A stretch of 53,574 nucleotides of DNA, filler included, from Stramenopiles sp. TOSAG23-2 (GCA_900128395.1; 4 parts of 4 records of this genome joined end to end with filler, not necessarily neighbours in it), one strand, 5' to 3'; counted from the whole stretch's first letter, positions 1 through 41,440 are shown. Numbers and translations are program-made. Notes: generated by a model from the sequence alone, not told the origin.

Positions 1-274
1 TATAATAATAATAATAGTGTAATAGTGACTAATAATAATAATAAAAATACAAAATAATACTATGATATATTTATCGTTTATTACCACACTGAGTAGCTAT
101 TAATCTTTCTTACTAGAGTGAGAACCCTCGTGGATATATTCAACGCAACAAAGCACCATCGGGCATTTCAAATTCTCTATATACATGTTCCAACATTTGA
201 ATATAAAATTTCTGTTGTTAATCCAGTATTATAAACTGAAGCTATCTTTTTTTGTCTGAGTGTACACTGTTACT

Positions 275-9200: not shown

Positions 9201-10574
9201 AAACTAGTTGCAAAGATTGTCCTGCTGGTAGATATCGAACAACTGATTCAACAAATGATAATAAAAATTGGAATGGTAATGCCAATGGAAATAATGATGG
9301 TATGAAAGCAGAAGCCGATTGTACGATATGTGGTGCAGGCAAATATAGTGAAGCTACGAAAGCAAATGCCGAAAGCACGTGTATCAATTGCCCAGCTGGT
9401 CGATACGGTGTAAATAATGCGAATACTGTTGGTGAACATGATCAATTATCTGATTGTGCGATATGTGGCGCAGGTAAATATAGTGAAGCTGTAGGAGCAC
9501 AAACATCAGCTACTTGTAGTGATTGCCCAGCTGGTACAATTGGTGTAAATAATAATAATGTTGTAGGTGATCATGATCAAGAAGCTGATTGCACAACGTG
9601 TAATAGTGGAGAATACCAAGACGGAACCGGACAAACTAGTTGCAAAGATTGTCCTGCTGGTAGATATCGAACAACTGATTCAACAAATGATAATAAAGAT
9701 TGGAATGGTAATGCCAATGGAAATAATGATGGTATGAATGCACTCGACGATTGTACGATATGTGCAGCTGGTAGTATCACAGATACTGGAACAGCTGATG
9801 GTGCTACAACCTGTACGCCGTGTGTTGCCGGTAAATTTTCCGCTAGTTCTAATGTGGCATCTTGCTCTGATTGTGCAGCTGGTAGTATCACAAATACTGG
9901 AACAGCTAATGGTGCTACAACCTGTACGCCGTGTGTTGCCGGTAAATTTTCCACTAGTTCTAATGTGGCACAATGCGATAATTGTGTTGCTGGTACATAT
10001 AACGATTTGAATACTGGAATAGCTACATTTTTATAACGATTTGAATACTGGAATAGCTACATGTAAAACATGCACAGCTACCGAGAGCAATAAATATGTA
10101 TCTACTGCTTGTACAACTACAGTCAACACAGTGTTCACATCATGTGGTACCTGTAATGCTGGTCAATATATATCAACGGCATGTGCGGTTGGTGATGCAA
10201 CCACGGTAGGTTCCGTTGCAATCTGCACGGCGTGTGTCGCCGGTAAATTTTCCGCTAGTTCTAATGTGAACTCTTGCTCTGATTGTAATGCTGGTAGTAT
10301 CACAAATACGGGAACAGCTAATGGTGCAACAAGCTGCACGGCGTGTGTTGCCGGTAAATTTTCCACTAGTTCTAATGTGGCATCTTGCGATAATTGTGTT
10401 GCTGGTACATATAACGATTTGAATACTGGAATAGCTACATGTAAAATATGTGGCGCAAATGAATGGCAAAATGGAGTCGGTGAAACTTCTTGCAAAAGTT
10501 GTCCAGGTGCAAAAGTTACAAACGGTAACGCTGCTGCAGACCATGATGAGAATAGTGATTGCACCAATCAATAG
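275..10574 (+). CDS. Giant (~3,420 aa) secreted adhesin/fibre-like protein: signal peptide, phage tail-fibre-like motifs, five E1-FCCH-like beta modules, beta-solenoid repeats, discoidin (F5/8C)-like domain, C-terminal Cys-rich ephrin-receptor/TNFR-like repeats
   Basis: ORF 260..10036 has its first ATG at 275 (MILFTMFLVIFLKGIFVTVA). It continues in ORF 10041..10574 across a 34-bp insertion that duplicates tataacgatttgaatactggaatagctacat (9998-10028 and 10032-10062). Motifs: FLRSRGT..PT...NDVLGYITF (~685-770); GD.V.I..C...NNG.(Y/F) at ~1150, 1420, 1970, 5380, 7990; G..L.I....LTTG repeats ~2170-3900; SANALDGNYANKW ~6460; C..C.AG.Y/F repeats 8700-10570. No introns needed. Confidence 0.85.
8700..10560 (+). 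repeat. Intragenic Cys-rich module repeats, some nearly identical at DNA level
   Basis: 9153-9306 matches 9585-9738 with one mismatch seen. 111-bp units start at ~9761 and ~9872 and recur at ~10225-10440. Confidence 0.9.
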
Positions 10575-15866: not shown

Positions 15867-17316
15867 ATGTCGAAAAAAAAAGTATTGCCATGTGCAATTA
15901 CATTATTAAAAGAACGTTTTTTATTATCTGCAATGACAAATGAGAATTTAGGAAATATATTAAATAGAATGGCATGTGATTATAGAGACGATGAAATAGC
16001 GCAAGCGACAACTCCACCACCATCTGTATATGTAGGTTTTGATCCGACGGCAAGTTCTTTGCATGTTGGAAATCTTGTATCGGTACGTGCGTTAGAAATT
16101 TTTCAAGCATCTGGTTTTCGTCCAATAGCTTTAATAGGTGGTGCAACTGGATTAATTGGAGATCCAAGTGGGAAAAGTACAGATCGTATATTATTAAATG
16201 TAAAACAAGTGGAAGAAAATCAGTTTGGCATTGAAAAATCATTAAAGCAAGTATTAGATTTCAACGGAAACAATAATCAACAGATCAAAATGGTAAATAA
16301 TATAGACTGGTATGATAATATGTCAGCTTTTGAATTTGTTCGTGACATTGGTCAACATTTTCGATTGTCTCAAATGTTATCAAAAGATAGTGTTCGAAAT
16401 CGTTTAGAATCAGATGTTGGGATAAGTTTCACGGAATTTTCATATCAAATGTTTCAAGCCCATGATTTTTATCATTTATATAACAATGAAAATTGTATAT
16501 TGCAAATTGGTGGTAGTGATCAATGGGGTAATATAGTTGCTGGATGTGAATTAATACGTAGACGTTTGGGTAATAATGATGATAATAATAATAATAATAA
16601 TAATGCATATGGTATGACGGTCCCATTGATGACCACTGCAAGTGGTGAAAAAATTAGGAAAATCTGCTGGAAATGCTATATGGATTGATCCAGATAAAAC
16701 GTCTCCATATGATTTTTATCAATATTTCATGCAAATTAAAGATGAAGATATTGTAGGCTTAATACCATTAATGGGCGTACATGTAAATATGAATGGTGAA
16801 GGTGAATATATCCATGATGATTATGATAATGAATTTTCATTAAATAAAGCAAAAGATGTAATAAAATTACATCAACAAGATCCTGGGAAAAGATATGGTC
16901 AAACATTTTTAGCTGAATCTATGACTACATGGGTACATGGTGAAGAAGTATGTCAAAGCGTACGCAAATTATCAAAAACTTTATTTCAAAAAAAGAAAAA
17001 AAGTAGTAATAATAGTAACGATATCAAAGACATGTTAAAAATGGCATTAAAAAATGGCAATGTTACCAAAGTAGAATTAAGGAATGATGACCTATCATCA
17101 ATAACAATTATAGAATTAAGTATGAAATGTAATGCGATTAAAAGCAAAGGTGAAGGTAAACGTTTGGTAAAGAATGGTGGATTATATGTAAACGATGTAC
17201 GAGTTGAAAATATTAATGAAATATTTGATATGGAAAAACATATTGTAGACGATCAATTTGTAATAGTACGTGTTGGTAGAAAATCACAATACATTATTCA
17301 AATATCGTTGTTGTGA
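15867..17316 (+). CDS. YARS2: Tyrosyl-tRNA synthetase, bacterial/mitochondrial type (one frameshift)
   Basis: YVGFDPTASSLHVGN (HIGH motif), QIGGSDQWGNI, KLGKSAGNAIW (KMSKS motif), C-terminal S4 domain (SKGEGKRLVKNGGLYVND). An extra A in the run at ~16648-16653 splits ORFs 15867..16688 and 16642..17316. Confidence 0.95.
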
Positions 17317-21620: not shown

Positions 21621-22835
21621 TTACGAATTCAATTTTTCTAAATTTTCCTTTGAACATATCGTAGTCTTCAATAAATCATTTAGTTTCACATCTAATGATA
21701 CATACGCATCTGGTTGTTGATATTCTGCTAATGCACATATTGCTTCCAACCATGCACGTGTATCTAATGTTTCACCACGAACAATTTTCTGCGTTGCAGC
21801 ATCATCAGCACCCCGGCGTTTTACTTTCACCGTGGAATCATAAAAACTTAACAAGTCCCACTTTTCTGCATGATGTCGTCCTTTCACGCTACCAGCTTCA
21901 TCTACTATACTTTTTAAATCTAACCCTTTCCCACCACCACACGCATTTTGAAAAATTTGACGCGCACTCATTTGAGATACTTGTCGTATACGAATATTTT
22001 TTATCATATCATCTTCAGTTAATGATGTGACTGTGTTCAAATTTTCTGCACCAGCTGTACGGGCCGCAACTCGTTTACTTCTATCTTTTGAACTTTGTGA
22101 TGGACCTGTCTCTTGTTCTAACAATGAATAGTCTTTCAAAAATTGCATCCATTCATTTACATTCATACTTTTTTGCCAATTTTTCAATGGTGGAAGTTAG
22201 GTCATTTGGCAATGATGTCTAGAACAATGAATAGTCTTTCAAAAATTGCATCCATTCATTTACATTCATACTTTTTTTGCCAATTTTTCAATGGTGGAAG
22301 TTAGGTCATTTGGCAATGATGTCTAGTACCAATCCAGCAGCAGAGAAAGCTTATATTGCATTATTGAAACGTATTGTGTTGAAAGAATGGCATAATTTAG
22401 TAATTCAATTAAAATTCAACAATTTACAAGATAGTATTGACGACCATAGTAACAGAACACGAGATACAAAACGTGGAATATTAGCACTGAGGCAAGAAGT
22501 CGTTTTGAAGCGTCATGAGCTAGTTCGCCTAATGGAATCGCTCGTAAGTTTTCTCTTCTCTGTTTCCTAGCAGCTTCTTCTATCTCTTTTCTACGTATTA
22601 CCATGACATCTTCATCCATTGCATTTAAAAGTGCATCTTGTAATTTGAAGGATTGCTTTGTACGTGGAGAGGACCATGCTGCATTTTGATTTGTTTTATT
22701 TAATACAAGTTTTACAGGTGATTGTACAACACTAGTTGGTGGTAAAGATCGAACATGCAATATTTGTTTTTCCTTTCCATTTGGAGAATGTTGATATGTT
22801 ACATAATCATAATCTTCTATTTTCGTATCTTCCAT
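21621..22835 (-). pseudogene. Hypothetical protein gene disrupted by an internal inversion, a duplication and an in-frame stop
   Basis: ORFs 22416..22835 and 21621..22187 are bridged by segment 22326-22543, which codes on the + strand. There is a ~103-bp duplication (22120-22222 and 22223-22326) and a TAA in QMT*LPP. Confidence 0.7.
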
Positions 22836-23429
22836 ATCGTTTTGAAAATGCAGCTATGGCGGTATATCTTCATGCGTTTCTATATTGTTTTGTTTTTAAT
22901 GTGTCATTTATTTTGGAAACATCACACATGTAAGTATACACATGTATATGGATATATATATATATATTTAGAACATAAATAAATATGACAAAAAAAAGTA
23001 ACGACAAAAAAAAAAAAACTTTCTCTGTCACAAAAACCTTAAATATTTGCAATACATATTTTAAGATTTTAAGCCCAGCTGGGCCAGGGCAGAGAGGACA
23101 GCCAGGACAGCAGTCGTCTGGCAGTTGCACAAAATATTACCGTACCTGTGATAAATAGAATTACAGAGGTAATATGATGTGGAATGTGGAATGCTGGAAT
23201 GCCATGGAATGCCTGGGATGTATTATATAATACTTTCGTATCCTCGTAATACTATTAATAAGTGGTATAATAATACGGTCGGTAACCTGATGTATTACCT
23301 GGTAAGTCGTCTGTCGTCTATTTATATATACCAGCCTTTTTTTATTAATTCACATAGGACTACATATACTTTATTATAGTAATATATTGCAAAAGAAGAA
23401 AAGACAATATAATCAAGAATGTGTGTTTT

Positions 23430-25196: not shown

Positions 25197-26543
25197 ATGG
25201 CATCCTCAAGCCCAGCATTGCAAAAAGAAGGTGTTGCAGATGGTACATATGCAATGACGGCAAAACAACGGGGGTTAATAGCACCGGAAACATTTACACG
25301 CGTAACATTAAAAACAATGCCGACACGTTTGTCACAATTAGTGAATTTTTGGACAACATTATTAGGTACTGTCGAGGTAACAACTTATCAAGAAGAGAGA
25401 TTTGTTAGCATACGCTTGGTTAATTTTACAGGATATTCTAAAGAGAATGAATATAGAATTGACATATTTGGTGATCCTAATTTAAAAGTATCCACAAACG
25501 ATGAAAAACCAGGATTTCCCGCTGTAGGAGTTGACCACATAGCTTTTACCTATGCAAATTTTAAAGATTTAGCTTCTACTGTCTTACGACTAAAAAGTAA
25601 AGGAATAGTACCGACTTTGCCAATTAATCACGGACCAACAGTGTCATTTTATTACACCGATCCAGATGGCACAAAAGCTGAGTTACAAATTGATGTGTTT
25701 GATAGAGCGAGAGATACCGAGGCCATGAAAGATCTTTTTGCTGGTCCATTTATGGAGAATCCAATAGGTATTATTATCGATCCAACGAAGTGGGCACTTG
25801 AAGCTTCAAAATTATCTGTAACTGAGGAAAATCATAAAATCGTTACAAAATATCCTGAAGCAACTAAAAGAGATAAAAAGATGGTTGTTGGCCAAAGAGC
25901 GTTTGCAAATATGTTAGGTGGAGGTAAATTTCCATTATCTGATGGAAATTTAAATAGAAGGATTGCCTCTATTACTATTGATACTACTATCCAAAAACCA
26001 GAACCAAAATTAATTCAAAATGGTATTTCTCCGCGATGCATGGCTCATATTGTTTTACGCACTGTTCGACCTGAGAAACAAATAGCGTTTTACAAAACTG
26101 TTTTCAATTGTCTAGCAGCATATGAATCAAAATCAGCAACATTTATTACATATGACGATGAACATCATCGCTTTGGAATTATTGTCATGCCAGTTGCAAA
26201 TAGAAGCAATGCACCTGGTGTATCCCACTGTAGTTACACTTTTAGCTCCATTCAAGAATTATATGAAACTTATCTACGCCTTGCGAATGATTTAAATGAA
26301 GCTATTTTACCAATTCATAGTAATCAAATGAATGATTGGATTTCATTGTTTTACATGGATCCAGATGGAAATCATGTTGAATTAACAGCAAGATTGCATA
26401 ATCAGTATGGCGATAATGACACAGCATTAGATCAGTGGCTATCTAATAATAATGCAGATATCAAGTACCCACTAGGAGAAACATTTGATTATGAAAGGGA
26501 TTGGTCAAAAGTATTAAGTAGTGATATGAAATCGAAGATGTAA
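25197..26543 (+). CDS. Tandem two-copy VOC/glyoxalase-superfamily protein (one-domain extradiol dioxygenase-like), PTS1 -SKM
   Basis: Copy 1: GVDHIAFTY...INHGPTVSFYYTDPDGTKAELQID..F.ENPIG. Copy 2: MAHIVLRT...FITYDDEHHRF...GVSHCSYTF...FYMDPDGNHVEL. Intronless, ends MKSKM*. Confidence 0.9.
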   Translation: MASSSPALQKEGVADGTYAMTAKQRGLIAPETFTRVTLKTMPTRLSQLVNFWTTLLGTVEVTTYQEERFVSIRLVNFTGYSKENEYRIDIFGDPNLKVSTNDEKPGFPAVGVDHIAFTYANFKDLASTVLRLKSKGIVPTLPINHGPTVSFYYTDPDGTKAELQIDVFDRARDTEAMKDLFAGPFMENPIGIIIDPTKWALEASKLSVTEENHKIVTKYPEATKRDKKMVVGQRAFANMLGGGKFPLSDGNLNRRIASITIDTTIQKPEPKLIQNGISPRCMAHIVLRTVRPEKQIAFYKTVFNCLAAYESKSATFITYDDEHHRFGIIVMPVANRSNAPGVSHCSYTFSSIQELYETYLRLANDLNEAILPIHSNQMNDWISLFYMDPDGNHVELTARLHNQYGDNDTALDQWLSNNNADIKYPLGETFDYERDWSKVLSSDMKSKM

Positions 26544-26797
26544 AAAGTTATGTGATGTGGTCAAAATATTACGACGTAAAATATTGGGATATCATATACG
26601 TCGTATGTGACATATATAATGCATAATATGTGCTCTTTACTACGGTTCGTATCATTAATGTGTGTGTGTAATATTATATACAGCAGTCTTTAATGTACGT
26701 ATTATTAAAAAATTAAAAAATTTTATATATTTTTTTATATATATATGGCTCAAATCGACAAAGATTTCCCCCATGCCAACATCAATATCTCAGCCAA

Positions 26798-26897
26798 NNN
26801 NNNNNNNNNNNNNNNNNNNNNNNNNNNNNNNNNNNNNNNNNTTAATTAATTAANNNNNNNNNNNNNNNNNNNNNNNNNNNNNNNNNNNNNNNNNNNN
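26798..26897. other. Artificial contig linker
   Basis: N44-TTAATTAATTAA-N44. Confidence 0.98.
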
Positions 26898-28023
26898 AGT
26901 TCCATATTTTAAACATTTTCTAATAAAATAGTCAAAAACGTCATTTATTTTGTACAGAATATCATTACATATTTAAAATATCCGAAATATGTGTCCCATA
27001 TCGTCCAAAATATTGCGAGTTGTCAAGATGTCCATTTTTCCTGGGGACAAATTGTCCCCGGCTAATGCTATCTTACACTAAAGATAGACATTAGGGTATG
27101 GAAAATACCAAAAAAAGCTCCATATAGCGAGTACACAGCATGGTATAATGGCACATAAGATAGTTCGACAGCTTTATAGACTGTGACTGATTATTTTAGC
27201 ATGGATTCTCAATCGCATGCTATGTTCATGACCAATGGTACGCGCCTGCTAAGAAATGGTTGAGAATTCGACACTTAACTATTATTTTTTGATAGGGATA
27301 CAACAAGATATTTTTAAAAAGATCGAAACAAGATATCCAACTTAAACTCTTTATGCCGAAAAGATTTTTTTTTTTTTACAACAGTATATATATATCAAAT
27401 ATTTTAACAACTAAAGGCAACCAGTAAAAATTAATTTCGATGTGTGGATTTATAAAAAAGAAACAATTGTTTAACTGATTATTTGACTATAGCTCAAAAC
27501 AATTTTAAAATAGTATTACAACAGTTTATTATTCATAAATAATTATAATTAAATATTATATTTTTGTTAATTTTTTAGTAGGAGTATTCTTATCTTGAAA
27601 ACGAAACAATGCTCCGTGAGTGAATGTGATTGTACTTTATATCCGTTTTATAACAGAATAAAGTTGTCTTTGATTTGAAAAGACGTTCTTGTCTATTCAA
27701 ACCGGCGCTGTGAGTGAATGTGATTGTAATTTATCTGTTTTGAAACGAAATAAAGTTTGCAAATGAATTGAATAGTTTTTCTTGACACTGTTCATATCAG
27801 TGATTTTTACTCTTGTTTATTGTGTAACGTACTGTATTTACTGCGTAATATACTATATTTCTCTTTTCTGTCCGATATATATATATGAAATGAGTAAAAT
27901 TTTCTACCATTCTTAAGTATTTACTTTTCTTTTTCTTTTCAATTTCTTCTTACATTCTTGTAATAAAGCTTTTGTTCTCTAAGCCTTCTTTCCAACAATT
28001 GTGTATATTTTAATTATTTTTAC

Positions 28024-28513
28024 CCTATAGGGGTGCAAAAACCTGGGTCACAGTAGTATATTCACCTGCTATAGTGGTATATACACTACATAGCATGGTA
28101 ATGGTATTACTATATTATATTTATTTAATAGGTACATACCATTGGCTACTGTCATTAATTTTATCAGTCCATTTTCGCAATTTGATGCTTATATACATAA
28201 ATTATTAGATATTGATATATGGTTTTTGGCTACAAAACGAAAGTTGCGAAAATCTCCTGCATTCCAATTCTTGGTTCTTGCCGTGAATCACTTGGTACAA
28301 GATAGACATACCATTGTATATATTTGATAGAATATATTACAGGTATTTAGTACGGCCATAAGTACGAAGTGATTCACGGCAAGAACCCAGAATTGAAATG
28401 CAGGAGATTTTCGCAACTTTTGTGTTGTAGCCAGGTATGTCTATCTTGTATGCTATATCCATTGTATATATAGCAGGTGAATACTGTGACCCAGGTTTTT
28501 GCACCCCTATAGG
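28024..28513. mobile_element. Foldback/MITE element with nested inverted repeats
   Basis: cctataggggtgcaaaaacctgggtcacagta (28024) is inverted at the end (...tactgtgacccaggtttttgcacccctatagg, 28513). An inner ~70-bp inverted repeat lies at 28227-28298 versus 28362-28433. The TAGGGGTGCAAA terminus resembles hAT; TSD is ambiguous. Confidence 0.85.
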
Positions 28514-28744
28514 ATACTCCTATAGTAATTAGTAGGTGTAGTTTTATTATTATTTATTATTATCAATTATTATTATTTTTAAATACATTTTTTTTACAAC
28601 AATATAATAATAATAGTAAGTGTAGTATTTTAATAGTACTTGGTGGCATTAAATTTTAAAAGTCTGTGGTATAGTAGCAAATTTTTTTTATAATATTTTT
28701 TTTTAAAACAAACGTTCCTTCACTTCTTGGTTGGCACACCTCAC

Positions 28745-29736
28745 TCACTCGAACTTTACTTCATCATCATCATCTCCAGCATCATCATTTGTCGTACCAA
28801 ATGCTGCAAATGACATTTCTTCCTGCATATTATTATTATTATCATTTGTCGTATCATCATTACCAAATGCATCAAAACTAATATCTTCAATAGTTGTATT
28901 GTCATTTGCATTGTTATTACCAAAGGCATCAAATGTGATATCATCATCATTATTGTTATCATTGTTACTATCATTGTTATTGTTGCTGTTATCATTGGTG
29001 GTGGTTTTATCATCATCTCCACCCCAACCATATCTTTGCCTCAATGCTTCATCGTCCACATCGTCATCGTCATCATCATCATCTTCACTATCATCACTAT
29101 CGTCCTCATCTTCGTTATTCATATCATACTCTAGTTCACCAGTTGTTATTGTTGTGTTTTGTCCAAAATTGTTGTTGTTGTTATTATTATTGCTATTGCT
29201 GTTGTTCAAACTAGATGGTAATACCATATTCCCAAGCTCGGTTTCCCATATTTTTGATGCTTTTGTTATACCATCCGATTCAATATTCAATGCTCTTGCC
29301 ATATCTAAATAATGTCCACCATATGCAATTTCTAATGAAATATCGTTTTCATCACGATCAAAATGACCAATGATTTTCTCTGCAATTGCATTTATTTTCA
29401 CACCACGATCTGTAATCATGCGTGCAATGGCACTATGCAATATATTATGCAATGGATACACTTCCATTAAATCAAATATTTTCAAACACGTATCATCATT
29501 CACACTATCTGGTTTTATCGCAGCCAACACTGAAACCAATTCCACTGCAAGTAAACGTTCGATGCCAAACGGTTTGTACACTTTCATATTGGTTGTCATT
29601 TTACCTTCTTCTGAATTGGTAGAAGTAATCATATTAACCACGTCTGGCATTTTATTTTCAACGGCAACGATTAGTTGTTGGATATTTAATATATTATTAT
29701 TACTACTACTACTATTCGTATTATTGTTCTCGTTGC

Positions 29737-29772
<36 letters not shown>

Positions 29773-30883
29773 TTTTGTTTAATAGTTGTTGTTGTTGTTG
29801 TTGTACCATTCCACATTCTTCCAATATTCTTGTTATGATGAAAAATGCACCACGATTTGGCAATGCATCTAAAACTTGTTGTATTTGATCCGTCAATGCA
29901 TTCATCATAGGTGTTTGTTCTATGCTTTGACTTTGCATTTCTTCCTCTTGCTGTCGTTGTGCTATTTCATTCAAATCCATCATATCGCTTCTACTGAAAT
30001 TAAAGGATGTTGGTGATGGTGGTGTATATGTTGATCGAGCTATTGCATCAATTAATGTTTCTGCAATATTTGTATATGCAGTTTGTGATTGATCTTGTTC
30101 ATGCAATGTTCGCAATAATGATGAAACTATACTATTTGCTGGCCAAAATGGTTTTGGAAATGTATTTGTTGTAGTTGCTTGATCATTATTGTTAACATCG
30201 CTGTTATTCCCATCACCATCATCACCACCACCATTACCAGTTGTCTTTTCTGCATTTTCATCTTTTGTTTCACTTGGTTTTAAATCAGATGCCTCTAACA
30301 ATAAACGAAAAGAAGCTGCGATGGAATCAACATTCATATGTTGTATAAACATAGTTAACAATACGTTTTCTTTTGTTGATAGATAATTTAACAATTCAGC
30401 ACGTCGTTCTTCCGATTCTTTGCATATACTTAGCATACATTTGTAAAAATTACCAGCTGAACGTGCATCCAGTTTGCCCCTATTTAATACGGAAAATAAA
30501 ATATTTAAATTTTCTTCATTTGTTAACTCATCGTTAATTTCCGATACGTCACAAGCAAATATTTCCGAGGCACTAGATGCTAATAACTCATAATCAAAGT
30601 TATTCGTACCATCTCCATCAGTGTTGTTGTCATCATTTTCTTCTTCCTTTACAATTAGTTCAATCAATGATTTTACATTTTCTTTTAAATATTTAATTAA
30701 TGATTCATTTAAATTTCTAACTTCTTGTATTAACGTTTGCTGCGTCAATACATCTTTTAACGTAAAATTGCCACTATCTAATAAATCTTGCAACGGGTTT
30801 GAAAACAAACCACCACCACTATCATTTCCCCATAAACTACCGGAGCTATCATCATCATTCGCAAACGATGCAAATAATGACAT
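28745..30883 (-). CDS. SIT4-associated protein (SAPS) / PP6 regulatory subunit
   Basis: PLQDLLDSGNFTLKDVL...LIQEVRNLNESLIKYL, ASEIFACD, KPFGIERLLAVELV, YPLHNILHSAI, YGGHYLDMA, acidic tail. Confidence 0.9.
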
Positions 30884-31778
30884 GATGATTTATGTATATA
30901 TATTTATATATCTTAAAATGTATATAAATATATATATATTTAGTTGTGTTTGTTTATATTATTAAATATATAGTATTTATATATAATTATATATATTTCT
31001 CCTATAATTTACAAGGTGCCAAGAAAAAAAATAAAATAAAAAAATGATGATGTTAATTTAAAAAAAAATATAAAAAAATGATTTTTTTTTCAAACAACAA
31101 TATTATATTATATATATAAGTTCGTTATCCTTGTTCCGTATTTGTTTCAACCAACAAGATATATATAATTCTATTTATGTCATATAGATGATATTATTTT
31201 TATGTTATATTATAACAATAAATTCTAATAATTCATATAAATCACTGGCCTTCTTCGGTCGAGTTTAAAAAATGCGGAACCTAAATCAAGCGGAACGAAA
31301 AAATGAATTTTAAAAAAGGAATTTGTGATTTCATGTTTTTTTAAATAAATAACTATGAAGTTTCACTTTACAAAATAAAATCGGATATTTGTATGTTTAA
31401 AATATCTATAATCGGCATTTTGTGATCCAATTTCGTACCCTTCAACTCAATTACAATGCTATTCGGATGCTAATATTTTCGGTCCGCCTGGTCCGCATTT
31501 AATAAATCTACCGGACTGGCCATTGGTGTATCGTTTTCATTAGTGACAGGATCGAGCGGATCGAGTATATCGGCCAATCTACCATCTGGGTCTCAATACA
31601 CATATATATCATGTGCTCATCTTGGACATCTGGACTGTAAGTGTGTGTGTGTTGACTCAAGTAGAGCTACGTATATATATATCTATATATATCATCTGGA
31701 CATCTGGACTGTAAGTGTGTGTGTGTTGACTCAAGTAGAGCTACGTATACCGCGATCTCTTTATTCAAATTATAAAAT

Positions 31779-32114
31779 ATGGCGTTTGATCCTACCAAGG
31801 TGACAATACATGATAAAAGTTACAGTGAAAGTGATGAAGGTGATTACGACTCATACACTATTCATGTTTTACAGCATGACGGGGAAGAATTTTTAAGAAT
31901 ACGTAGTCGCGAAAGTTCTAATATTGGTGGTGCATGGGGTTCAGAACATAAAATATTAGAAATGGACGGGGAAAAATGCATTGTTCAAAACTTTAAAGTT
32001 GGTGGTACAGTAGGGAGTGGAGGTCGAAATTCGGAAGCTAACGGTAGTCCTGTGGTATACGATTTGAAGACAGAATGGGAAAAGTTCATGAAAAAAAAGA
32101 AAGAAAAAAAATAA
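31779..32114 (+). CDS. Hypothetical protein, 111 aa
   Basis: Clean ORF with protein-like composition and A-rich start context. Confidence 0.7.
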   Translation: MAFDPTKVTIHDKSYSESDEGDYDSYTIHVLQHDGEEFLRIRSRESSNIGGAWGSEHKILEMDGEKCIVQNFKVGGTVGSGGRNSEANGSPVVYDLKTEWEKFMKKKKEKK

Positions 32115-32499
32115 GAAATGATGATGTTTGAAGCTAAAGTATTCATCCCAAGAAGTACAGAGTACTATACAAAAAATTGAGGAAACTTGATTATTTTTTA
32201 AATAGTAAACAGTTATAGCAACAACGTCAAAATGCCGTCATGACCGTGGACGGGTGTGAATTTTTCCCAGATGCCGTGGACGAGCGTGGATTTTTTTTTC
32301 TTGCCGTGCCCATCACTAAATAGTATAATACCATTAAATCCAAAAAAAAATTAAAACAGGAATGTACAAGAAGACGACCTGTATAACTCGGTCCCTTCAC
32401 ACTACGTGTATAATGGTGTCTCCTCTTCTATGTCTTTTGCTTCCCTCCTTTTTAAAATGAAGCAAGGAGGGAAGCGACGTATAAGCATGCGATCATGCA

Positions 32500-32980
32500 T
32501 TGTACAAAAATGTCAAAAAATCAATTGAAGATACAATACGATTAGTGAATCCATTGCCATTTGATCGAGATATTTTACGCTCGGAATTAATGCAGCGCAA
32601 AGAATATTTAGATATGCAAAAGAAACGCCCATATGCAAATCCAACTGCAATGTTTAAAAATCATCAAGACGCATTAAATGTGAAACAATCTGAATTAGAT
32701 AGTAAATTATCACAAATCTTAAAAGGAAAAGTTCCTCGTGTATATGGGGAAATGCCAAAACATTAAGGCAAATATCAACGTATTGCACCTGTAACGAAAT
32801 TGTATGACAATGTGCTGCTGTTAAATTACGACGATCTGGTTTAGCTGGTAGAAAATCAGAAAATAATAAGAAACAAAAACGATTTAATATTACGCGTACT
32901 ATTTCCTTTTCTGGAAGGGGTAGCCGGTCTAGTAATCATCGAAGAAGACGTGCGTGGGATATACCAAATTTTATTTTAAA
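32500..32980 (+). pseudogene. Probable decayed gene
   Basis: ORF 32500..32766 has no ATG start, and coding-like sequence continues in frame through stops (PKH*GKYQRIAPVTKLYDNVLLLNYDDLV*LVENQK). Confidence 0.45.
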
Positions 32981-33183
32981 AAATTATTTCTTCAATCGTA
33001 AAAAAGTGAAAGTGGTGTGTTTAAATTTATTATAGATGTTTGCAAAAGGTATATGTGATGTGTAATACATGTATATTTATACACTTCTATATTTTCCCCT
33101 CTTTCAAGTATATAAATTAGAATATCTGAAACCTGGAATTTGATAGGAGATTTTTATGTCCAACACAAAAAAAAATAATAAAT

Positions 33184-33432
33184 TAGAGTTATCGATATTA
33201 AAGATGGCAAATTTAAATTTTTTTATTTTTTTTGCAACTTTTTTTTTTCTTACCCTCTAGTATCAAATAGTATCACATATATATATATTAAGGTATGTTA
33301 ATATTTATTTTAAAAAACCCCTCTGAAATTGTGTGTGTAATATTATTCCTATACTAAAGGGGCTGGAAAAACATTTTTAAAAAAAATAAAAAAAAATATT
33401 TAAATTTGCCATCTTTAATGTCAATAACTCTA
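33184..33432. mobile_element. Short MITE-like element (249 bp) with ~35-bp TIRs
   Basis: tagagttatcgatattaaagatggcaaatttaaat (33184) versus atttaaatttgccatctttaatgtcaataactcta (ends 33432), 2 mismatches. No TSD seen. Confidence 0.75.
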
Positions 33433-33473
33433 CAAAAAACATAGAATTTAGGCTTTAAGATAGAGAAAGAGTA

Positions 33474-34352
33474 GATTTCCATTCTAGGTAATATAGTTGA
33501 TAAACCAAGTGGGACAATCATTCATATATCTATCTGATCGTTGTCTCTGTATATTTATCTATTTATTGATAACAATCCTATTGTAGTCCATACTGTTTGA
33601 ATATATTCTAATAGTTTTGTGCGCGCGTGTGTGTATATATATATATTACGGTGCGGATTATTATTATTAAAAATAATATATATATACATTGACGAAATCC
33701 CTGATTTCCATTTTAGGTAATATAGTTGATAAACCAAGTAGGACAAATCATTCTTCTATCTATCTAATCGTCGCTGTATATCTATCTATTTATTGATAAC
33801 AATCCTATTGTAGTCCATACTGTTTGAATATAGTTTTGTGCGCGCGTGTGTGTATATATATATATTACGGTGCGGATTATTATTATTAAAAATAATATAT
33901 ATATACATTGACGAAATCCCTGATTTCCATTTTAGGTAATATAGTTGATAAACCAAGTAGGACAAATCATTCTTCTATCTATCTAATCGTCGCTGTATAT
34001 CTATCTATTTATTGATAACAATCCTATTGTAGTCCATACTGTTTGAATATAGTTTTGTGCGCGCGTGTGTGTATATATATATATTACGGTGCGGATTATT
34101 ATTATTAAAAATAATATATATATACATTGACGAAATCCCTGATTTCCATTTTAGGTAATATAGTTGATAAACCAAGTAGGACAAATCATTCTTCTATCTA
34201 TCTGATCGTTGTCGCTGTATATCTATCTATTTATTGATAACAATCATATTGTAGTCCATACTGTTTGAATATAGTTTTGTGCGCGCGTGTATAGATATAT
34301 ATATATATTACGGTGCGGATTATTATTATTAAAAATAATATATATACATTGA
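33474..34352. repeat. Tandem array, 4 copies of a ~219-bp unit
   Basis: Units start with gatttccatt at 33474, 33703, 33922 and 34141. Inner copies are near-identical and outer copies slightly diverged. Confidence 0.95.
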
Positions 34353-34416
34353 AGAAAAATTTATTAAGTAAAAGGTATAATTCTTCATATAAATAAATAT
34401 AATAATAATAATATCA

Positions 34417-34944
34417 ATGGCATATTTACAACGACCAAGACCAAATGCAAAACCACATGAACCCTGGGGTAAAGCGGAACCATTAATTAAAGCACATGAT
34501 TTAGCATACGTACGATTTAGCTGCCCTGATTTAGAGACAATGCATACGTTTATTAATGAATTTGGTTTAAAAGTAGTTCATTATGAGAAAAATAAATGTA
34601 TTTATTCAAGAGGATTGGAAAAAGATTATCCATATGCACATATTGTACATCAAGGACCACCGAAATTCATAGGTTTTGCATTTCGTGTTAATAAATTGGA
34701 AGATTTACATACATTAGCAAACAACGTACCAAATTGCACGCCAGTGGAAGAGATGACTGGTATTGAAGGTAAATTAAGCAATAACCCTGGTATTGCTAAG
34801 AAAGTATCATTTATTGATCCTGTGAATGGATTTCTTATTGAAGCAGTATATGGACAAAAATGCGATGAAATTCCATCACGACATGCACAACGAATTTTAT
34901 ACAATTATGGTGTAAGTATATATACATCATATATAAAACTTTAT

Positions 34945-34978
<34 letters not shown>

Positions 34979-35803
34979 CAAACACATAATTTTCTAACAA
35001 ACGGTATACACACACACACACATACACCAATTATATAGGAACGTAAAAATTTTCAACGTTTAGGACGTTTACAAGATGTTGGTAATCGTAAAACTGGTGG
35101 TGGTGAAATTGGAATGGTTGAATGTCGTAAATTAGGCCATTGCGTTTTATCAATTCATCCAAGTAAATTCAAAGATTCATTAATATTTTTTCATGATACA
35201 TTTGGTTTAATAGGTAGTGATACGAATTTTGGGGATAAAGAAAAAACACGACCAATGTCACAATTTATGCATTTAGATCGTGGGGAAGAATATACGGATC
35301 ATCATACTATTTTTCTATTACCTGGACGTAGTAATAAAATGAAAACTGCACAATTAAGCCATTTATCCTTCGAAATGGAAACGATTGATGATGTATTTCG
35401 TGGACATCATATATTTAGAAATGCAAAGAAAAAAAACAGACGTAGATACCAACATGCATGGGGTTTAGGTAGACACGTACAAGGTTCACAAGTGTATGAT
35501 TATTGGTTTGATCCATGGGGTCATATCCATGAACATATGTGCGATGGGGATCAAATTAATAATACGCATGAACATCGTATGTGGGGTCCAGGCGATCAAA
35601 CTGGTGCGGGGGATCAATGGGGACCAACGGAGGAAGAAAGCACGGTATTTAATTTATTTGGACCAGATCGATGTGAATATTTTCCATTATTACCAACGAG
35701 TTTTCAAGAAAGTATTTTAAGTCGTGATTTAGAACATTTAATACATATTGATGTGGTGGATACAGTGTTGAAAAGTTATGGTGTGAATAGTAGTAAGATG
35801 TAA
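34417..35803 (+). CDS. Two-domain extradiol dioxygenase, trihydroxytoluene oxygenase (DntD)-like VOC family, 419 aa, PTS1 -SKM
   Basis: Exons 34417-34911 and 35039-35803; phase-0 intron 34912-35038 (GTAAGT..CTAAC..TAG). Motifs LAYVRF..PDL, KLGHCVL, FMHLDRGEEYTDHHT, HLSFEM, HAWGLGRHVQGSQVYDYWFDPWG..HEH..DGD. Ends NSSKM*. Confidence 0.92.
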
Positions 35804-37334
35804 CGAGAGTTTTGTGTGTTTGTAGTAATTTAATAATTGTATGCAAATAATGTGAATCACGATTCGTAATATGATATCAGTGTTTAAAAAAAGGGAAAAT
35901 ATTGAACAAGAATTAAAAAAAGAGGAGAGAGAGAGTTTTATATATATACACATGCATATTATATCATACATGATATATGATTGGTTAAAATCTAAAGTTA
36001 TTTTAAATAATTTTACACTTACCACTCTTTCACGAGGTGTTAAGTGTTAAGTAAAATAAAGCTAAAGTGATCAAAACCGCGGCTTTTTGCCACAACCGTG
36101 CACTTCAAGATCTTTATCCGGCTAGTTACCGATTGTTGTTCACAACAGGATCTTTCACTTTGACAGCCTCACCGCTATCGAGTGAACCCGACGTCCAGCG
36201 CGTTCAACGATTGCGCACGGAAGGATAGAAACCTACTTGTGCTTGTAGAGTATTAGTTTGCAGAAGGTGGTGGTGCCCTTTTTTGTTTTAACCCTTCAAT
36301 CGTTGATTGTTTCAAGCGCTTTGCAGGTGGTGGGTTAGTAACTATCGATGCCATGATGGCTTACTATCTCTCACTTACTTTCTCTCACTCACTCACTCTT
36401 TCATCTATCATCTCTCTCTTGTAAGTACACATGTGAAAATATAAATGTATATATATAATATCTATAAATATATATAATGCATCATCATGTGTACCTGCTA
36501 ATAATCGATATGTTAAGATTTTTTGTTGTTCTCGTGTTGATTTAAAATGCGGCACCACTTTGTTTTCAATTTGGATTTATTATACATATTTTGTTTTCCA
36601 TCGTGCCGCTTTGTTTCCAATTGTTTTGTATTGCTTTTTTTCCATTTTTGGAGGCATACCACTTCCGGTAATTTTTATTCAAAAAGAATCCCACCAGTAA
36701 AAATATCGAAAATATACATTAATTAAAAAACATGCCACAGCATTATATCAGCAAAGCGGCGAGGCACTCGATGTTGTTAAAATACCATTATTACATATAT
36801 TCTCTATATTAATTTTTAATATTTCTTAAAATATCCGTAATTGTTAGCATAATATATCAACACAATATACTAATACACTAATATTACAAGGCAATAATAT
36901 CTATTACATTGCTGATTGCTGATATAAAAGTATTCTACTAGCAATTTTCCACATCAATAAATTCCAATATTAAAATACCATTATTACATATATATATTAA
37001 AATATCCGTAATTATGATCATAAAATATACATTCATAAAGAGCGTAAGAATATGTATTCTACTTCTGATATAATATAAAATTTGATCAACAATAATACCA
37101 TCAATAATATAATAATATTCACCCACACTTCTTTTAACCAACAATCAACAATACACAATACACATACACACATACCTGAGATGAAGACAGAGTTGTACAG
37201 CATAAAACATGTACATCTCGCTACTACAGTCTACTTCAGAGCAATCGATACAAACTTAATTCATTTATATTTTTTTAAATCATAATAATAGCGGTGTATA
37301 ATTTATTTAACAACAATATATATATATAACAAAC

Positions 37335-38053
37335 ATGACACGGACATGGAAATGTGGATGTGGAAAATTTACAGCAAAAATCGAAGGGGAACCCATTTTA
37401 TTATTTAACTGCCATTGCCATAGTTGTATGTAAAAACATTTTTTTTCTATCGTTTTACAACTAATATTAATCTTTATCTCTCTAACACATCATTTTTTTT
37501 TCATACAATATATGTGATACATATATATATACATATCACAGGTGTTGCGCCTGCACGTTATGCAGATGAACATTTTGGTAGAACCAATCGTACTGCGTTG
37601 GACTCACTTGGTGGAGTTGCAAAATATTTTGCAAAATTAAAAGATGTAACATATCATCCATCCAACCCACCATTAAATTACATACGTGTTGGCCCAAAAG
37701 GTACCAATGTACGTACGATTACAAGTTGTTGTGGTACTATTTTAAATACTGCTGGTGGTGCTAAATTTCCAATCAAGGATGCAAGGCCATTTTCACGTAA
37801 TAATATTTACAATGCAGATGGAACTTTGTATAATTTACAATGTGGTCGTTGTGCTGATTTTATGTTGGATAAAGCATTTAATGATTACAAACATCCAACT
37901 GGTGGTCCAGCTTTTAATGGTGCAGCATTTGGTAATGCAATCAAAGCTGGTTTGAAACAAGATACAAGTATCTTTCCACAGCATTATTACAAAGTCCCAG
38001 ATGAAGGTACTGTTACGGTACCAATTACATGGGAAACAAAAAGTAAAATGTAA
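37335..38053 (+). CDS. GFA/CENP-V (Mss4-like Zn-binding) family protein, 200 aa, PTS1 -SKM
   Basis: Exons 37335-37425 and 37542-38053; intron 37426-37541 (GTATGT..CAG). Spliced product MTRTWKCGCG...NCHCHSC...TSCCGT gives the CxC/CHCxxC/CG Zn-ligand pattern. Ends TKSKM*. Confidence 0.85.
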
Positions 38054-38993
38054 TTTAACATAACTTCTTGTTGTATTTCATATGCGTAATGCATCGGAGA
38101 TCATACATTATGTTTTGTGTTGGTGTGTGTAATTGATTGTTGATTTAAGATTTAAATATATATATATTGTATACATGAGATGAAATCTGCCTCTTAAATG
38201 ATGGTGTTGAATTATATGTTGTAGCAATTATACAAAACATTTTAATATACAAACGTATTGAATTTATCATATATTGTTTGCCCTATAGGAATAGCATTAT
38301 ATCAGAGTTGAAGAGTAATCAAAATATGCCGATTATTGATATTATTAACATACAAATATCCGATTTTATTTTGTAAAATGATTCATTATGATGTGCTTAT
38401 TTTAGTTTTTTATTTAAAAAAAATTGAAATCACAAAATCCTTTTTTGAAATTCATTTTTTGATAACATTTCGTTCCCATTGATTACGTTCCCGCCTCGTC
38501 CGCATGTTAGAATTAAGAGGCACATAGCATAGCATTTTGATGATTATTATTTCAAAAATGTGTACAAAAATTTATTTTTTTACTCATATTTACATGTAAT
38601 TACCACTAATATTTATCCGGTATATATTCTATATAAATATGTGTCGAGTAAAAGATGCATCTATAGAGAGATTAATAGAGAGATTATATATAATTTTTGC
38701 GAGACTTTGGGGGCGTGAAAGTTATCACCAATAGCTGATATATTCACTACTATATCAAACAGTATATTTTATCACAACCAGTCAAATCTAGTTCTTCGAC
38801 AAGCCTTCCATCTTTATCTACATCATATTTTATAGATTCTTGAATTTCTTCTTCGTATTTTTGCTTTTTTTCAATAACAAAATTTTTTACGCTTATAGTA
38901 TACAGAGGTCCCAGAGGTATACATAGATTAAGAATTAAGATAGGTTGATCGATCGTGGTAGAAGAGAGCTGGGAGAGATAAACATATGACAAA

Positions 38994-39893
38994 ATGGCAT
39001 TGTATAGAGATACTGCACAGCGTATTGGATACATTGTACCTTTTACAGGGAAAAAAAGAAAATTTAATGATAGTGATGATGATGAAGATGAAGATTTAAT
39101 TGTAGAAGAAGAACCATGTACTAATATATATTCCGTTTGTGATGTATTGGGGTTGTTTAAAAAGATTGTGGATTATTTAAATGTACATGAAAAATTGAAG
39201 GTAAAAGAGTCTTGTTTTACAAAACAACTAAGTCAGAAAAATGGAAGGCTTTCATATTGGCTGTATGGTAATGATTTAATATACAACACAAAAATACTAT
39301 TTGATTTGTATCGTAGATATGAAAGAAAGTTTCCACGTGGTACAGAACTCACAGCAGGTCAAATACCAACACTTTTCATATGTGCATGTGAACACGGACG
39401 TATGGTTGATGTAGAATTATTTGTGAATCTTCATCCTTTTCACAAGTATATTGCTAATCGCGATGTGAATGGCTACAGAGATGATATGACATTGAAAGAT
39501 ATGGTTAATCAAGTCGGTAGAAATAGTCGTGGTGGTGAATGTACACCTTTAATGATAGCTGCAAAGAAGGAACATTTCCAAATAGTTAAATATTTAATTG
39601 AACAAGGTGAAGCTGATCCTAATATTGCAAATAGTCGTGGATATAATGCATTACATTATGCAGCAGGTAGTAACGAAACAAATACTGAGTTGATTGAATT
39701 GTTATTAACTCATATGACTCTTAATAGCATTAATAAGAAGACGTCCTGGTGGGGAGCCACTCCCCTGGACTATGCATATCGTAATTATAATAGTCCAATT
39801 CAACAAGAGATCATTGCACTTTTACGTTCAAAAGGTGGATATACGCGCGCTCATATGAGCGCTTATATTACTGGTAATGCTGTGGTGGTATAA
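38994..39893 (+). CDS. Ankyrin-repeat protein with a possible degenerate F-box-like N-terminal segment
   Basis: TPLMIAAKKEHFQIVKYLIEQGEADPN, NALHYAA, TPLDYA; upstream GLFKKIVDYLNVHEKLKV. Confidence 0.9.
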   Translation: MALYRDTAQRIGYIVPFTGKKRKFNDSDDDEDEDLIVEEEPCTNIYSVCDVLGLFKKIVDYLNVHEKLKVKESCFTKQLSQKNGRLSYWLYGNDLIYNTKILFDLYRRYERKFPRGTELTAGQIPTLFICACEHGRMVDVELFVNLHPFHKYIANRDVNGYRDDMTLKDMVNQVGRNSRGGECTPLMIAAKKEHFQIVKYLIEQGEADPNIANSRGYNALHYAAGSNETNTELIELLLTHMTLNSINKKTSWWGATPLDYAYRNYNSPIQQEIIALLRSKGGYTRAHMSAYITGNAVVV

Positions 39894-40289: not shown

Positions 40290-41440
40290 TGTACAAACAA
40301 TAATAATGTTATTGACGTCGGGAAGTATTTATTATTACATGGTAGTAAAGAAAAAGATTTTAATCAAGGCAAAGCAGATTGGCCTAATGCAAGATTACTA
40401 ATTAGAAAATATAAAAAAGAATTTCCACGCGGTACGCCAATAGTATGTGCGTGTGAAAAAGGACGTTTTGAGGATGTGAAATTATTGATTACAGGCTATA
40501 ATGATCTGAATGATGGATGTTGGGCGCGTGGACCGAAGGACTCCAAGAAAATAATCACGGATCTAAAATCATGGCGTTTAGGCTTAAAGGTTGGTGATCG
40601 TTGCGATGCAATGGATAGTGTTGCAGGTGCAAATAGCAATTATACACCACAGTGGTTTGAAGGTATTGTACAAGAAATTAATGAAGAGAAAAATACATTG
40701 CTCATACATTTTCATGCCTGGAAACCCAGATTTGATGAATGGATTACAAGAGATTCAGAGCGTTTACAGCCACGGTTTACAAAAAAGAGAGATTGGCGAT
40801 CTCAATTAAAAGTAAACGAAAGAGTTGAGCTAAATGTCTACAATAAACATAAGAAGCAAGATGAATGGATTGCGGGATTAGTCCTTAAAATTGATCGCAC
40901 TGTTGAAGGGTCGGAAAAAATATTTGTAAAAGAGTTGAATAAAGGCCGCAGTACTTACAGCAATTATTATTCTAGCTCCATTCGTACCTATGGTAATAGC
41001 ACCACTCGGTGGATTGGTGTATGGGATGAAAAATTAACTGAACAGCACACTCATATTAAAGATAGTAATGGTAATATGACATTGAAAGAATACGTGAATC
41101 AAGTCGGTAAAACTAGTGAAAGTTATAATAATACACCTTTAATGGCAGCTGCATGGAAAGAACATTTCCAAATAGTTAAATATTTGATTGAACAAGGTGA
41201 AGCTGATCCTAATATTGCAAATAGTCATGGATGGAATGCATTACATTGGGCAGCACTGATAACATAAAGGATACGAAGGTGATTGAGTTCTTATTAACTA
41301 ATATGTCTCTTACTAGCATTAATAAGAAGGCGGCGTGGGGCACTCCCCTGGACTGGGCATATGAATATAATAAAAGTCCAATTCAACAAAAGATCATTGA
41401 TCTTATACGTTCAAAAGGTGGAAAACGTAATAATGAGTGA
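40290..41440 (+). CDS. 5'-partial ankyrin-repeat protein (paralogue of 38994..39893) with an inserted tandem Tudor/Agenet-like cassette; one frameshift
   Basis: Frame is open from the contig start. It shares FPRGT..CACE.GR..DV.L and EHFQIVKYLIEQGEADPNIANS with the paralogue. Insert: WRLGLKVGDRCDAMD..WFEGIV..LLIHFHAWKPRFDEWI..DSERLQP. Frameshift at ~41256 into ORF 41231..41440. Confidence 0.85.

Follow-up and report, generated by a model that had tools for sequence, protein, structure and literature searches.

The window analysed here, a stretch of 53,574 nucleotides from Stramenopiles sp. TOSAG23-2 (GCA_900128395.1), comprises four contigs of ~13.3 kb each, separated by spacers of the form N44-TTAATTAATTAA-N44, and carries three genes whose predicted products all terminate in the tripeptide Ser-Lys-Met (SKM). 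G1 encodes a tandem VOC protein, G2 a protein resembling extradiol ring-cleaving dioxygenases, and G3 a small cysteine-rich protein with a GFA-like start. G2 and G3 are neighbours in the same orientation with 1531 nt between them, and G1 lies on another contig. This arrangement had been reported in the initial annotation (with the distance given as ~1.5 kb), and the coordinates, -SKM ends and differing codons given there for the three genes were all found to be correct. The features of the three genes are as follows.

25197..26543, + strand: G1, single exon of 448 codons, tandem VOC protein
26532..26540, + strand: SKM codons of G1 (TCG AAG ATG), with the stop codon at 26541-26543
34417..34911, + strand: G2 exon 1, 165 codons, N-terminal non-catalytic domain
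34912..35038, + strand: G2 intron, GT..AG, 127 nt, phase 0, placed by sequence and by RNA contig X19 record 25
35039..35803, + strand: G2 exon 2, catalytic domain, helical C-terminal region and tail ending in SKM
35792-35800, + strand: SKM codons of G2
37335..37425, + strand: G3 exon 1, GFA-like, with a Cys-x-Cys ... Cys-His-Cys-x-x-Cys zinc motif
37426..37541, + strand: G3 intron, GT..AG, 116 nt, phase 1, placed by RNA contig X15 record 6
37542..38053, + strand: G3 exon 2, 169 residues of no recognisable family, ending in SKM
38042-38050, + strand: SKM codons of G3

The shared C-terminal tripeptide

Each of the three reading frames closes with codons for Ser-Lys-Met followed by TAA, written as TCG AAG ATG TAA in G1, AGT AAG ATG TAA in G2 and AGT AAA ATG TAA in G3, so that the encoded C-termini read ..DMKSKM, ..VNSSKM and ..ETKSKM, respectively. 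A scan of the 205 stop-to-stop open reading frames (ORFs) of at least 60 aa in the whole window returned this end in only three cases, which are G1, G2 and G3, upholding the earlier statement that no other gene ends this way; one 65-aa ORF (22736-22933), which is probably non-coding, ends in SHM. Across the 24 ORF segments taken as coding, ~9,900 residues in all, the tripeptide was not found elsewhere. Based on amino-acid composition, the probability that at least 3 of 22 gene ends would read SKM is ~2e-9, and for the wider class [SAC][KRH][LM] the same estimate gives ~8e-6. As the three tails sit in unrelated flanking DNA and are written with different codons, they are independent of one another and are not copies. 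Shared 3' ends or gene conversion, considered as a source of the tails, were ruled out by the differing flanks and the differing Ser and Lys codons.

Conservation of the tail was followed in clusters of strain variants whose members are at least 90% identical. SKM is kept in 11 of the 15 listed members of the G1 cluster and in 13 of 15 and 11 of 11 members of the other two; the members lacking it are all incomplete fragments, and every member with a full end has it. This invariance holds even though the adjacent residues and the length vary, with Val or Thr in G2 and Asp or Gly in G1 at position -6 across RNA and protein clusters, and with a two-residue insertion (..SMHSKM) in G2 strain variants. 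In the AlphaFold2 models the tails are flexible: residues 442-448 of G1 have predicted local distance difference test (pLDDT) values below 50, and the last block of G2, which lies beyond the conserved fold, has a pLDDT of 66.

A basic residue at position -4 favours function of a type-1 signal for peroxisomal targeting (PTS1), and G1 and G3 both have Lys there. In all three proteins -SKM stands directly before the stop and matches the PTS1 pattern [SAC][KRH][LM]. -SKM is listed for established plant peroxisomal proteins (PMC3355810) and is covered by the pattern [SAC][KRHS][LM] of a diatom PTS1 screen (bioRxiv 10.1101/2021.01.24.427197), in agreement with the initial description of SKM as a PTS1 variant. 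Among more distant relatives, both of the G2 relatives end in -SKL, the sole homologue of G3 ends in -QKL, and the sole collinear relative of G1 has no PTS1.

These ends bear on the alternative that -SKM is not used for import at all, the enzymes being cytosolic and the tail neutral or kept for another purpose. Relatives of G1 and G3 without a canonical PTS1 would fit such an explanation, as would the acidic residue at -6 in both (Asp in the G1 of the window, Glu in G3). It would nevertheless have to accommodate three ends with a joint chance of ~2e-9 and independent codon usage, a tripeptide that stays fixed while its surroundings change, eukaryote-type G2 relatives with -SKL on the same kind of extension, and the favourable Lys at -4 in G1 and G3, and we regard it as improbable. 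Judging from these sequence patterns, the -SKM tails have almost certainly been kept by selection as signals, and a role as PTS1 is the reading that fits them best by a wide margin.

Expression was followed through RNA contigs of region 34300-38200, assembled from polyA libraries of four marine metatranscriptome studies. RNA contig X15 record 6 skips exactly 37426-37541, giving the G3 joint 37425|37542, and X19 record 25 (927 nt) joins 34911|35039 in G2, with both pieces contiguous in the record. These contigs, whose depth was not taken as a ranking of expression, confirm both introns and show that G2 and G3 are expressed. Because X15 record 6 supports a G3 protein of 200 aa, the stored models P0144 (176 aa) and P0114 (232 aa) are wrong; P0114 is an ORF running through the intron, and the splice used in P0144 drops the Cys-rich residues 8-31. 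The G2 model is the same as the stored 419-aa protein P0133, strain differences aside. Of the 24 public runs listed, 20 carry region 34300-38200; they belong to 13 studies with labels that are mostly marine or seawater, and six of the runs carrying it are RNA libraries. Together with the gene content, this marks the source as a single-celled eukaryote of marine habitat.

The spliced contigs also bear on the case for bacterial contamination or mis-assembly, which might be raised on account of the intron-less G1 and the bacterial identity of the nearest G2 relatives outside its own clade. For G2 and G3 this origin is contradicted by their GT..AG introns, which have been spliced out in the RNA contigs of polyA libraries, and window introns in general are short and GT..AG. 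The guanine-plus-cytosine (GC) content is ~31% across the whole window and the G1-G3 region is alike in this respect. The eukaryotic gene complement of the window includes ankyrin proteins, Vps53, a C-type lectin/PAN protein and a tyrosyl-tRNA synthetase; the lectin, PAN and tRNA-synthetase genes share the contig of G1, and G3 adjoins an ankyrin gene in a synteny kept in a second, 95.8%-identical record. With identities to bacterial relatives of only 42-45% in addition, contamination of any of the three genes is very hard to credit.

Several sequence features surround G2 and G3. Four head-to-tail copies of a 219-nt unit, 80-100% identical, make up an array at 33474-34346, and as this array stops ~70 nt upstream of the start codon, the promoter-proximal region of G2 lies within it. 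Between G2 and G3, at 36003-36264 (within a GC-richer island at 36040-36360), there is a highly covered stretch of ~200 nt with a summed contig depth of 50-600, compared to 2-7 for the genes, in all four RNA runs; its coverage comes from numerous short contigs whose loose ends differ on either side. This stretch gave no Rfam match and contains no long ORF, and an E-value scan of 35850-36500 gave only weak matches at chance level; it resembles a dispersed repeat that is transcribed, or else a small RNA of high abundance. Inverted arms of ~150 nt, 31298-31445 and 38300-38460, are about 90% complementary and flank ~7 kb in which the tandem repeats, both genes and the abundant element between them are found. 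Strain contig L111 has the right arm as well, and the two arms could be two copies of a miniature inverted-repeat transposable element (MITE)-like sequence or the termini of a composite mobile unit.

The three proteins and their relatives

G2 encodes 419 aa, and its AlphaFold2 model (pLDDT 83.9, predicted template-modelling score (pTM) 0.88) shows two tandem VOC domains. The top Foldseek matches of the model are 3b59 and catechol 2,3-dioxygenases, with E-values of 1e-17 to 1e-18 and a probability of 1.0, and a PDB profile search returned 3b59 at 7.8e-29. A word-indexed search yielded 111 relatives. In a 28-sequence alignment, H199, H253, H254, H273, H311 and E330 are invariant and Y320, ten residues ahead of E330, is nearly so, and these residues align with their counterparts in Mn(II)-bound 3b59. 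By the roles of the equivalent residues in BphC, XylE and HPCD, we take this set to be a 2-His-1-carboxylate metal site with a catalytic His and a catalytic Tyr. Compared to type I extradiol dioxygenases (1mpy, homoprotocatechuate 2,3-dioxygenase, BphC/HsaC and 3b59), G2 has the same two-domain fold, with template-modelling (TM) scores to the target of 0.70-0.78, and the same metal and catalytic pattern (H199, H273 and E330; H253/H254, H311 and Y320), but is only 16-20% identical to the solved enzymes. It further differs from them in being eukaryotic and intron-bearing, in a tail that ends in a PTS1 motif, and in an additional helical C-terminal region of ~60 residues that is common only to a clade of marine bacterial long forms. 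Judged by sequence and model, G2 resembles the two-domain type I extradiol dioxygenases and has its catalytic residue set intact, and the likeness to ring-cleavage dioxygenases proposed at the outset was borne out in both fold and residue pattern.

The nearest non-self relatives of G2 are P0004 (59% identical, 404 aa, ending in -ASKL) and the fragment P0007 (ending in -RSKL), followed by the bacterial long forms, which are 402-461 aa in length, 42-45% identical to G2, and derive from marine Acidimicrobiia/Candidatus Poriferisodalis, a Bacteroidota metagenome-assembled genome (MAG) and alphaproteobacterial single-cell genomes. Among the 111 relatives, a PTS1-like end was found only in the cluster of G2 itself, in P0004 and in P0007. 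The phylogeny against bacterial homologues that the initial annotation had called for was run for G2 on 42 rows, with fragment P0007 excluded, as a quick search rooted on one distant, long-branched row. The long forms fall into one clade (Shimodaira-Hasegawa-like approximate likelihood ratio test, SH-aLRT, 100), which lies inside the short bacterial forms (302-439 aa as extracted). In it, the three eukaryote-type rows group together (98), with the 19 bacterial long forms (93) as their sister group. A PTS1-like end is present in all three eukaryote-type rows and in none of the 19 bacterial ones. G2 shares its length class and C-terminal region with the bacterial long forms, but these end in ..LDGL, ..IDAL or ..RATE, whereas proteins of the G2 type end in -SKM or -SKL. 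The eukaryote-type proteins run 7-12 residues past the bacterial C-terminus, which is where the signal is located; they lack two bacterial insertions and have an N-terminal HEPWG stretch in common. Tested for bacterial ancestry, G2 branches beside the bacterial radiation, with an intron and AT-rich codons present. A history in which a bacterial-type enzyme became a eukaryotic gene with an intron and then acquired an added tail with -SK[LM] is well supported by these sequence comparisons. The earlier description of the genes as bacterial-type holds for G2, which outside its own clade has bacterial proteins as its nearest relatives, and is unsupported for G3, which is GFA-like at its N-terminus only.

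The genomic context of the bacterial relatives was surveyed at seven long-form loci, where 34 neighbouring ORFs were scanned. An aromatic-type monooxygenase with the FAD_binding_3 domain adjoins the long-form gene in four of the seven loci, spread over three phyla, and the other neighbours include a small Rieske protein (two loci), an FAA-family hydrolase (one) and an RPE65 oxygenase with Acyl-CoA_dh_2 (two). By its gene content this neighbourhood is a setting of aromatic catabolism. Such operon-like clusters of flavin adenine dinucleotide (FAD) monooxygenase, Rieske and FAA hydrolase genes accompany the bacterial long forms, while none surrounds G2.

The bacterial loci behind the conserved cluster are L059, L064, L077, L055 and L002. 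In the alphaproteobacterial version, genes for an FAA hydrolase, a 208-aa protein, a small Rieske protein and the long-form VOC dioxygenase are accompanied by a divergent FAD monooxygenase gene, and the Bacteroidota MAG keeps a core of monooxygenase, Rieske protein, a 215-aa protein and dioxygenase. The 208-aa and 215-aa proteins are 44% identical to each other and belong to no Pfam family. The cluster is a candidate for an uncharacterised aromatic pathway. Neither this 208/215-aa neighbour nor nine other unassigned neighbours resembled any of the three proteins to a significant degree (best E 0.12), and, as the 208/215-aa neighbour is unrelated to G3, no operon was transferred together with the dioxygenase gene.

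G1 matches the Pfam family PF00903 (Glyoxalase) in two stretches with 44 bits, compared to a cut-off of 20.6, and its halves are homologous to one another (24% identity, E 7e-11), in keeping with its initial description as a tandem VOC protein. An exhaustive profile-free search (E <=0.001) placed it in a family of 955 cluster representatives, most of them single units of ~200 aa. Invariant or nearly invariant in this family are a first His, Glu-His-His-Arg, a second His, Asn-His-Gly, Tyr-Tyr-x-Asp-Pro-Asp-Gly and a Glu, with a spacing that resembles that in G2 and in the C-domain of 3b59. In the N-terminal half of G1, Arg replaces the first His and Glu-His-His is missing; the C-terminal half keeps the His/His-His/His/Tyr/Glu set and has lost Asn-His-Gly. 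The same complementary decay is seen in P0160, the only collinear relative of G1 (31% over 413 residues). From this residue pattern, we infer that G1 is a pseudo-dimer with one working site. Compared to PcpA (4huz), MhqO-type 3oaj and the ~200-aa VOC proteins, G1 consists of two copies of such a unit with two VOC domains, a fusion with complementary decay that is common only to P0160, and G1 alone ends in a PTS1.

The AlphaFold2 model of G1 (pLDDT 72) shows two VOC domains and a floppy tail, and its Foldseek matches are a mixture of PcpA, MhqO-type, glyoxalase I, GLOD4 and other proteins with TM scores of only ~0.45. A sequence search of the PDB with G1 gave no matches, and no paper was found for PDB entry 9u42, the best profile match of the G1 family. 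A FosA/FosB fosfomycin thiol transferase identity was rejected, as the best score of 34 bits compares with cut-offs of 170-310 and reflects a generic VOC likeness. In the Atlas, clusters similar to G1 occur in both Ascomycota and Pseudomonadota. Of five bacterial contexts of single-unit relatives, two have an FAD aromatic monooxygenase directly adjoining, one of them on a Rhodococcus plasmid in the order FAA hydrolase-VOC-monooxygenase; in a third context, an FAA hydrolase lies ~4 kb off with insertion sequences between.

G3 carries cysteines at C7-x-C9 and C26-H-C28-x-x-C31 and in a later S-C-C-G, with a spacing and remainder that are not alignable to GFA profiles. Pfam was scanned exon by exon; exon 1 matches GFA (PF04828) at profile positions 2-28 of a domain of ~115 positions, and an hhalign comparison with GFA gave 54% over residues 2-33 (32 columns). 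Exon 2 has no Pfam or NCBIfam match, its PDB sequence matches are at chance level, and its best Atlas score of 0.77 provided no lead. Among 5.8 billion clustered proteins, G3 found homologues only in its own cluster and in P0115, which is 55% identical. A metagenome scan for relatives returned a single locus, on the 95.8%-identical strain contig, where there is one synonymous change in 603 coding bases of G3 compared to 1.4-2.4% mismatches plus indels in the flanks. On these sequence comparisons, the likeness of G3 to GFA is limited to the first ~32 residues and the remainder is an orphan, so that of the earlier name 'GFA protein' only the part concerning the N-terminus stands.

Proposed import into peroxisomes and possible chemistry

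Taken together, we give a probability of roughly 0.55 to the reading that G1, G2 and G3 are PTS1-tagged peroxisomal matrix enzymes, with G2 and G1 of ring-cleaving type and G3 serving a thiol step. All three would be matrix proteins of a peroxisome or peroxisome-derived organelle, with a PEX5-type receptor binding the free -Ser-Lys-Met in the cytosol and carrying the folded enzyme inside. G2, from a lineage of bacterial origin that would later have gained a short C-terminal extension with the signal, may act as an extradiol-type dioxygenase that depends on Fe(II) or Mn(II) and cleaves an aromatic ring bearing two hydroxyl groups. G1 would be a second VOC enzyme of ring-cleaving type, in which two ~200-aa copies were fused and one complete residue set was left. 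G3, a small cysteine/zinc protein, would most likely contribute a thiol (glutathione)-dependent step that isomerises or traps a reactive ring-fission product or aldehyde. The tails, the gene models, the expression of G2 and G3, the folds with their residue patterns, and the bacterial sister group with its neighbouring genes were established directly from the data, whereas the import, the metal, the substrates and any link between the three enzymes are what we infer.

Two known systems offer partial parallels. In the glycosomes of kinetoplastids and diplonemids, enzymes of bacterial ancestry have gained a peroxisomal targeting signal and entered the organelle (PMC9512073), which follows the same logic as proposed here, although glycosome cargo serves sugar and nucleotide metabolism as opposed to ring-cleaving dioxygenases. 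That enzymes derived from bacteria can be redirected to peroxisome-type organelles is known, and the cargo here appears to be new. In Candida parapsilosis, peroxisome genes are induced on hydroxyaromatic substrates, and GFA1 is induced together with the gentisate pathway and has been proposed to be a glutathione-dependent maleylpyruvate isomerase (bioRxiv 10.1101/2021.09.13.460007). In this yeast with its gentisate/3-oxoadipate gene clusters, a GFA-family gene is thereby tied to ring cleavage; the ring-cleaving enzymes there belong to other families, with no PTS1 reported for them in the portion of that preprint consulted, and the GFA likeness of G3 covers ~32 residues only. By analogy, GFA1 offers a concrete idea for what a GFA-like gene could do beside a ring-cleaving dioxygenase, and the idea fits the FAA-type hydrolases of the bacterial loci.

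A number of results weigh against this reading. For import, no PTS1-like end was found in the best 150 of the 955 representatives of the G1 family, P0160 is extended at its N-terminus and has no PTS1, and P0115 ends in -KQKL, which is non-canonical. P0004 and P0007, which end in -SKL, are only presumed to be eukaryotic. No PEX gene was found among the 20 ORFs of the window that were scanned. For the bacterial origin of G2, the donor and the direction of transfer are unproven, as the eukaryote-type clade is sister to the long forms and not nested in them. For ring cleavage, the best score of G2 against curated families (catechol 2,3-, biphenyl-2,3-diol, HpaD and HsaC) is 48.1 bits with TIGR03211, whose cut-off is 320.2, and since it falls so far under the NCBIfam equivalog cut-offs, G2 constitutes a distinct subfamily. 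Searches of a plasmid collection for a named function returned annotated relatives that bear only 'VOC family protein', and the initial label 'THT-oxygenase-like' was not confirmed. For G3, exon 1 scores 23.1 bits (E 8e-5) against the Pfam GFA cut-off of 24.3, and with our own profile from 30 bacterial GFA domains G3 reaches 10.6 bits, compared to 8.9 for the best of 200 shuffles. Finally, the window has no gene for a hydroxylase or hydrolase in the vicinity of any of the three.

The last of these points also feeds the explanation that all three proteins are imported but are unrelated detoxifying enzymes, with the adjacency of G2 and G3 being accidental. The VOC protein could then be a glyoxalase-like or other metal enzyme, and the GFA-like protein could trap formaldehyde from peroxisomal oxidases. 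The VOC fold does span many chemistries, the mixed structural matches of G1 and its weak FosA-type NCBIfam scores do not single out one of them, and G1 sits on a different contig from the other two. On the other hand, G2 and the C-terminal half of G1 retain the full extradiol pattern of His, His-His, His and a Tyr ten positions ahead of a Glu, bacterial relatives of both families adjoin aromatic monooxygenases and FAA-type hydrolases, and two neighbouring PTS1 genes would be unlikely by chance if such genes make up ~1% of the total, a figure that is assumed. We therefore consider a set of unrelated enzymes rather unlikely, and retain the reading as PTS1-tagged enzymes of ring-cleaving type with a thiol step.

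A fuller version of that reading, in which a widespread marine heterotrophic protist carries out O2-dependent ring cleavage in its peroxisomes through the bacterial-type extradiol dioxygenases G2 and fused G1 with their PTS1 tails, coupled to the product of the neighbouring gene G3 as a new thiol-dependent zinc enzyme, is put forward as a tentative proposal only. No report of peroxisomal extradiol ring-cleaving dioxygenases was found in a literature search whose coverage left out supplements and subscription journals. The enzyme content of peroxisomes is known to shift between lineages, and, if import and activity hold true, these genes would provide a clean example of a bacterial enzyme domesticated via a three-residue address. 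They would also point to the turnover of aromatic compounds by uncultured marine protists, give the orphan GFA-like protein a testable role, and represent a first peroxisomal extradiol pathway, such that protists, and not only bacteria, would degrade marine phenolic matter.

Other features of the window

Outside the three genes, the window holds several features that were recorded in passing. An intron-less ORF of 3258 codons and a further ORF of 177 codons at 260-10574 encode a giant cysteine-rich surface-type protein with Ephrin-receptor-like, ELAPOR/TNFR-like, NCD3G and F5/8 type C (discoidin) repeats, and DNA repeats of 80-220 nt lie inside the ORF. Scans of the window with Rfam and for tRNAs returned nothing at gathering scores. 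The tyrosyl-tRNA synthetase (15867-17316), of bacterial or organellar type, is divided between two ORFs that overlap, and its C-terminal domain is a bacterial-type SYY domain; this is probably the organellar enzyme, its gene containing a short intron or a frame change.

Two ankyrin-repeat genes, 38994-39893 and 40476-41267, lie on different contigs and share stretches that are 85% identical, with 39484-39665 corresponding to 41074-41255 and 39758-39839 to 41341-41422. Either these genes are paralogues of recent origin, or the contigs that carry them are allelic or neighbouring pieces.

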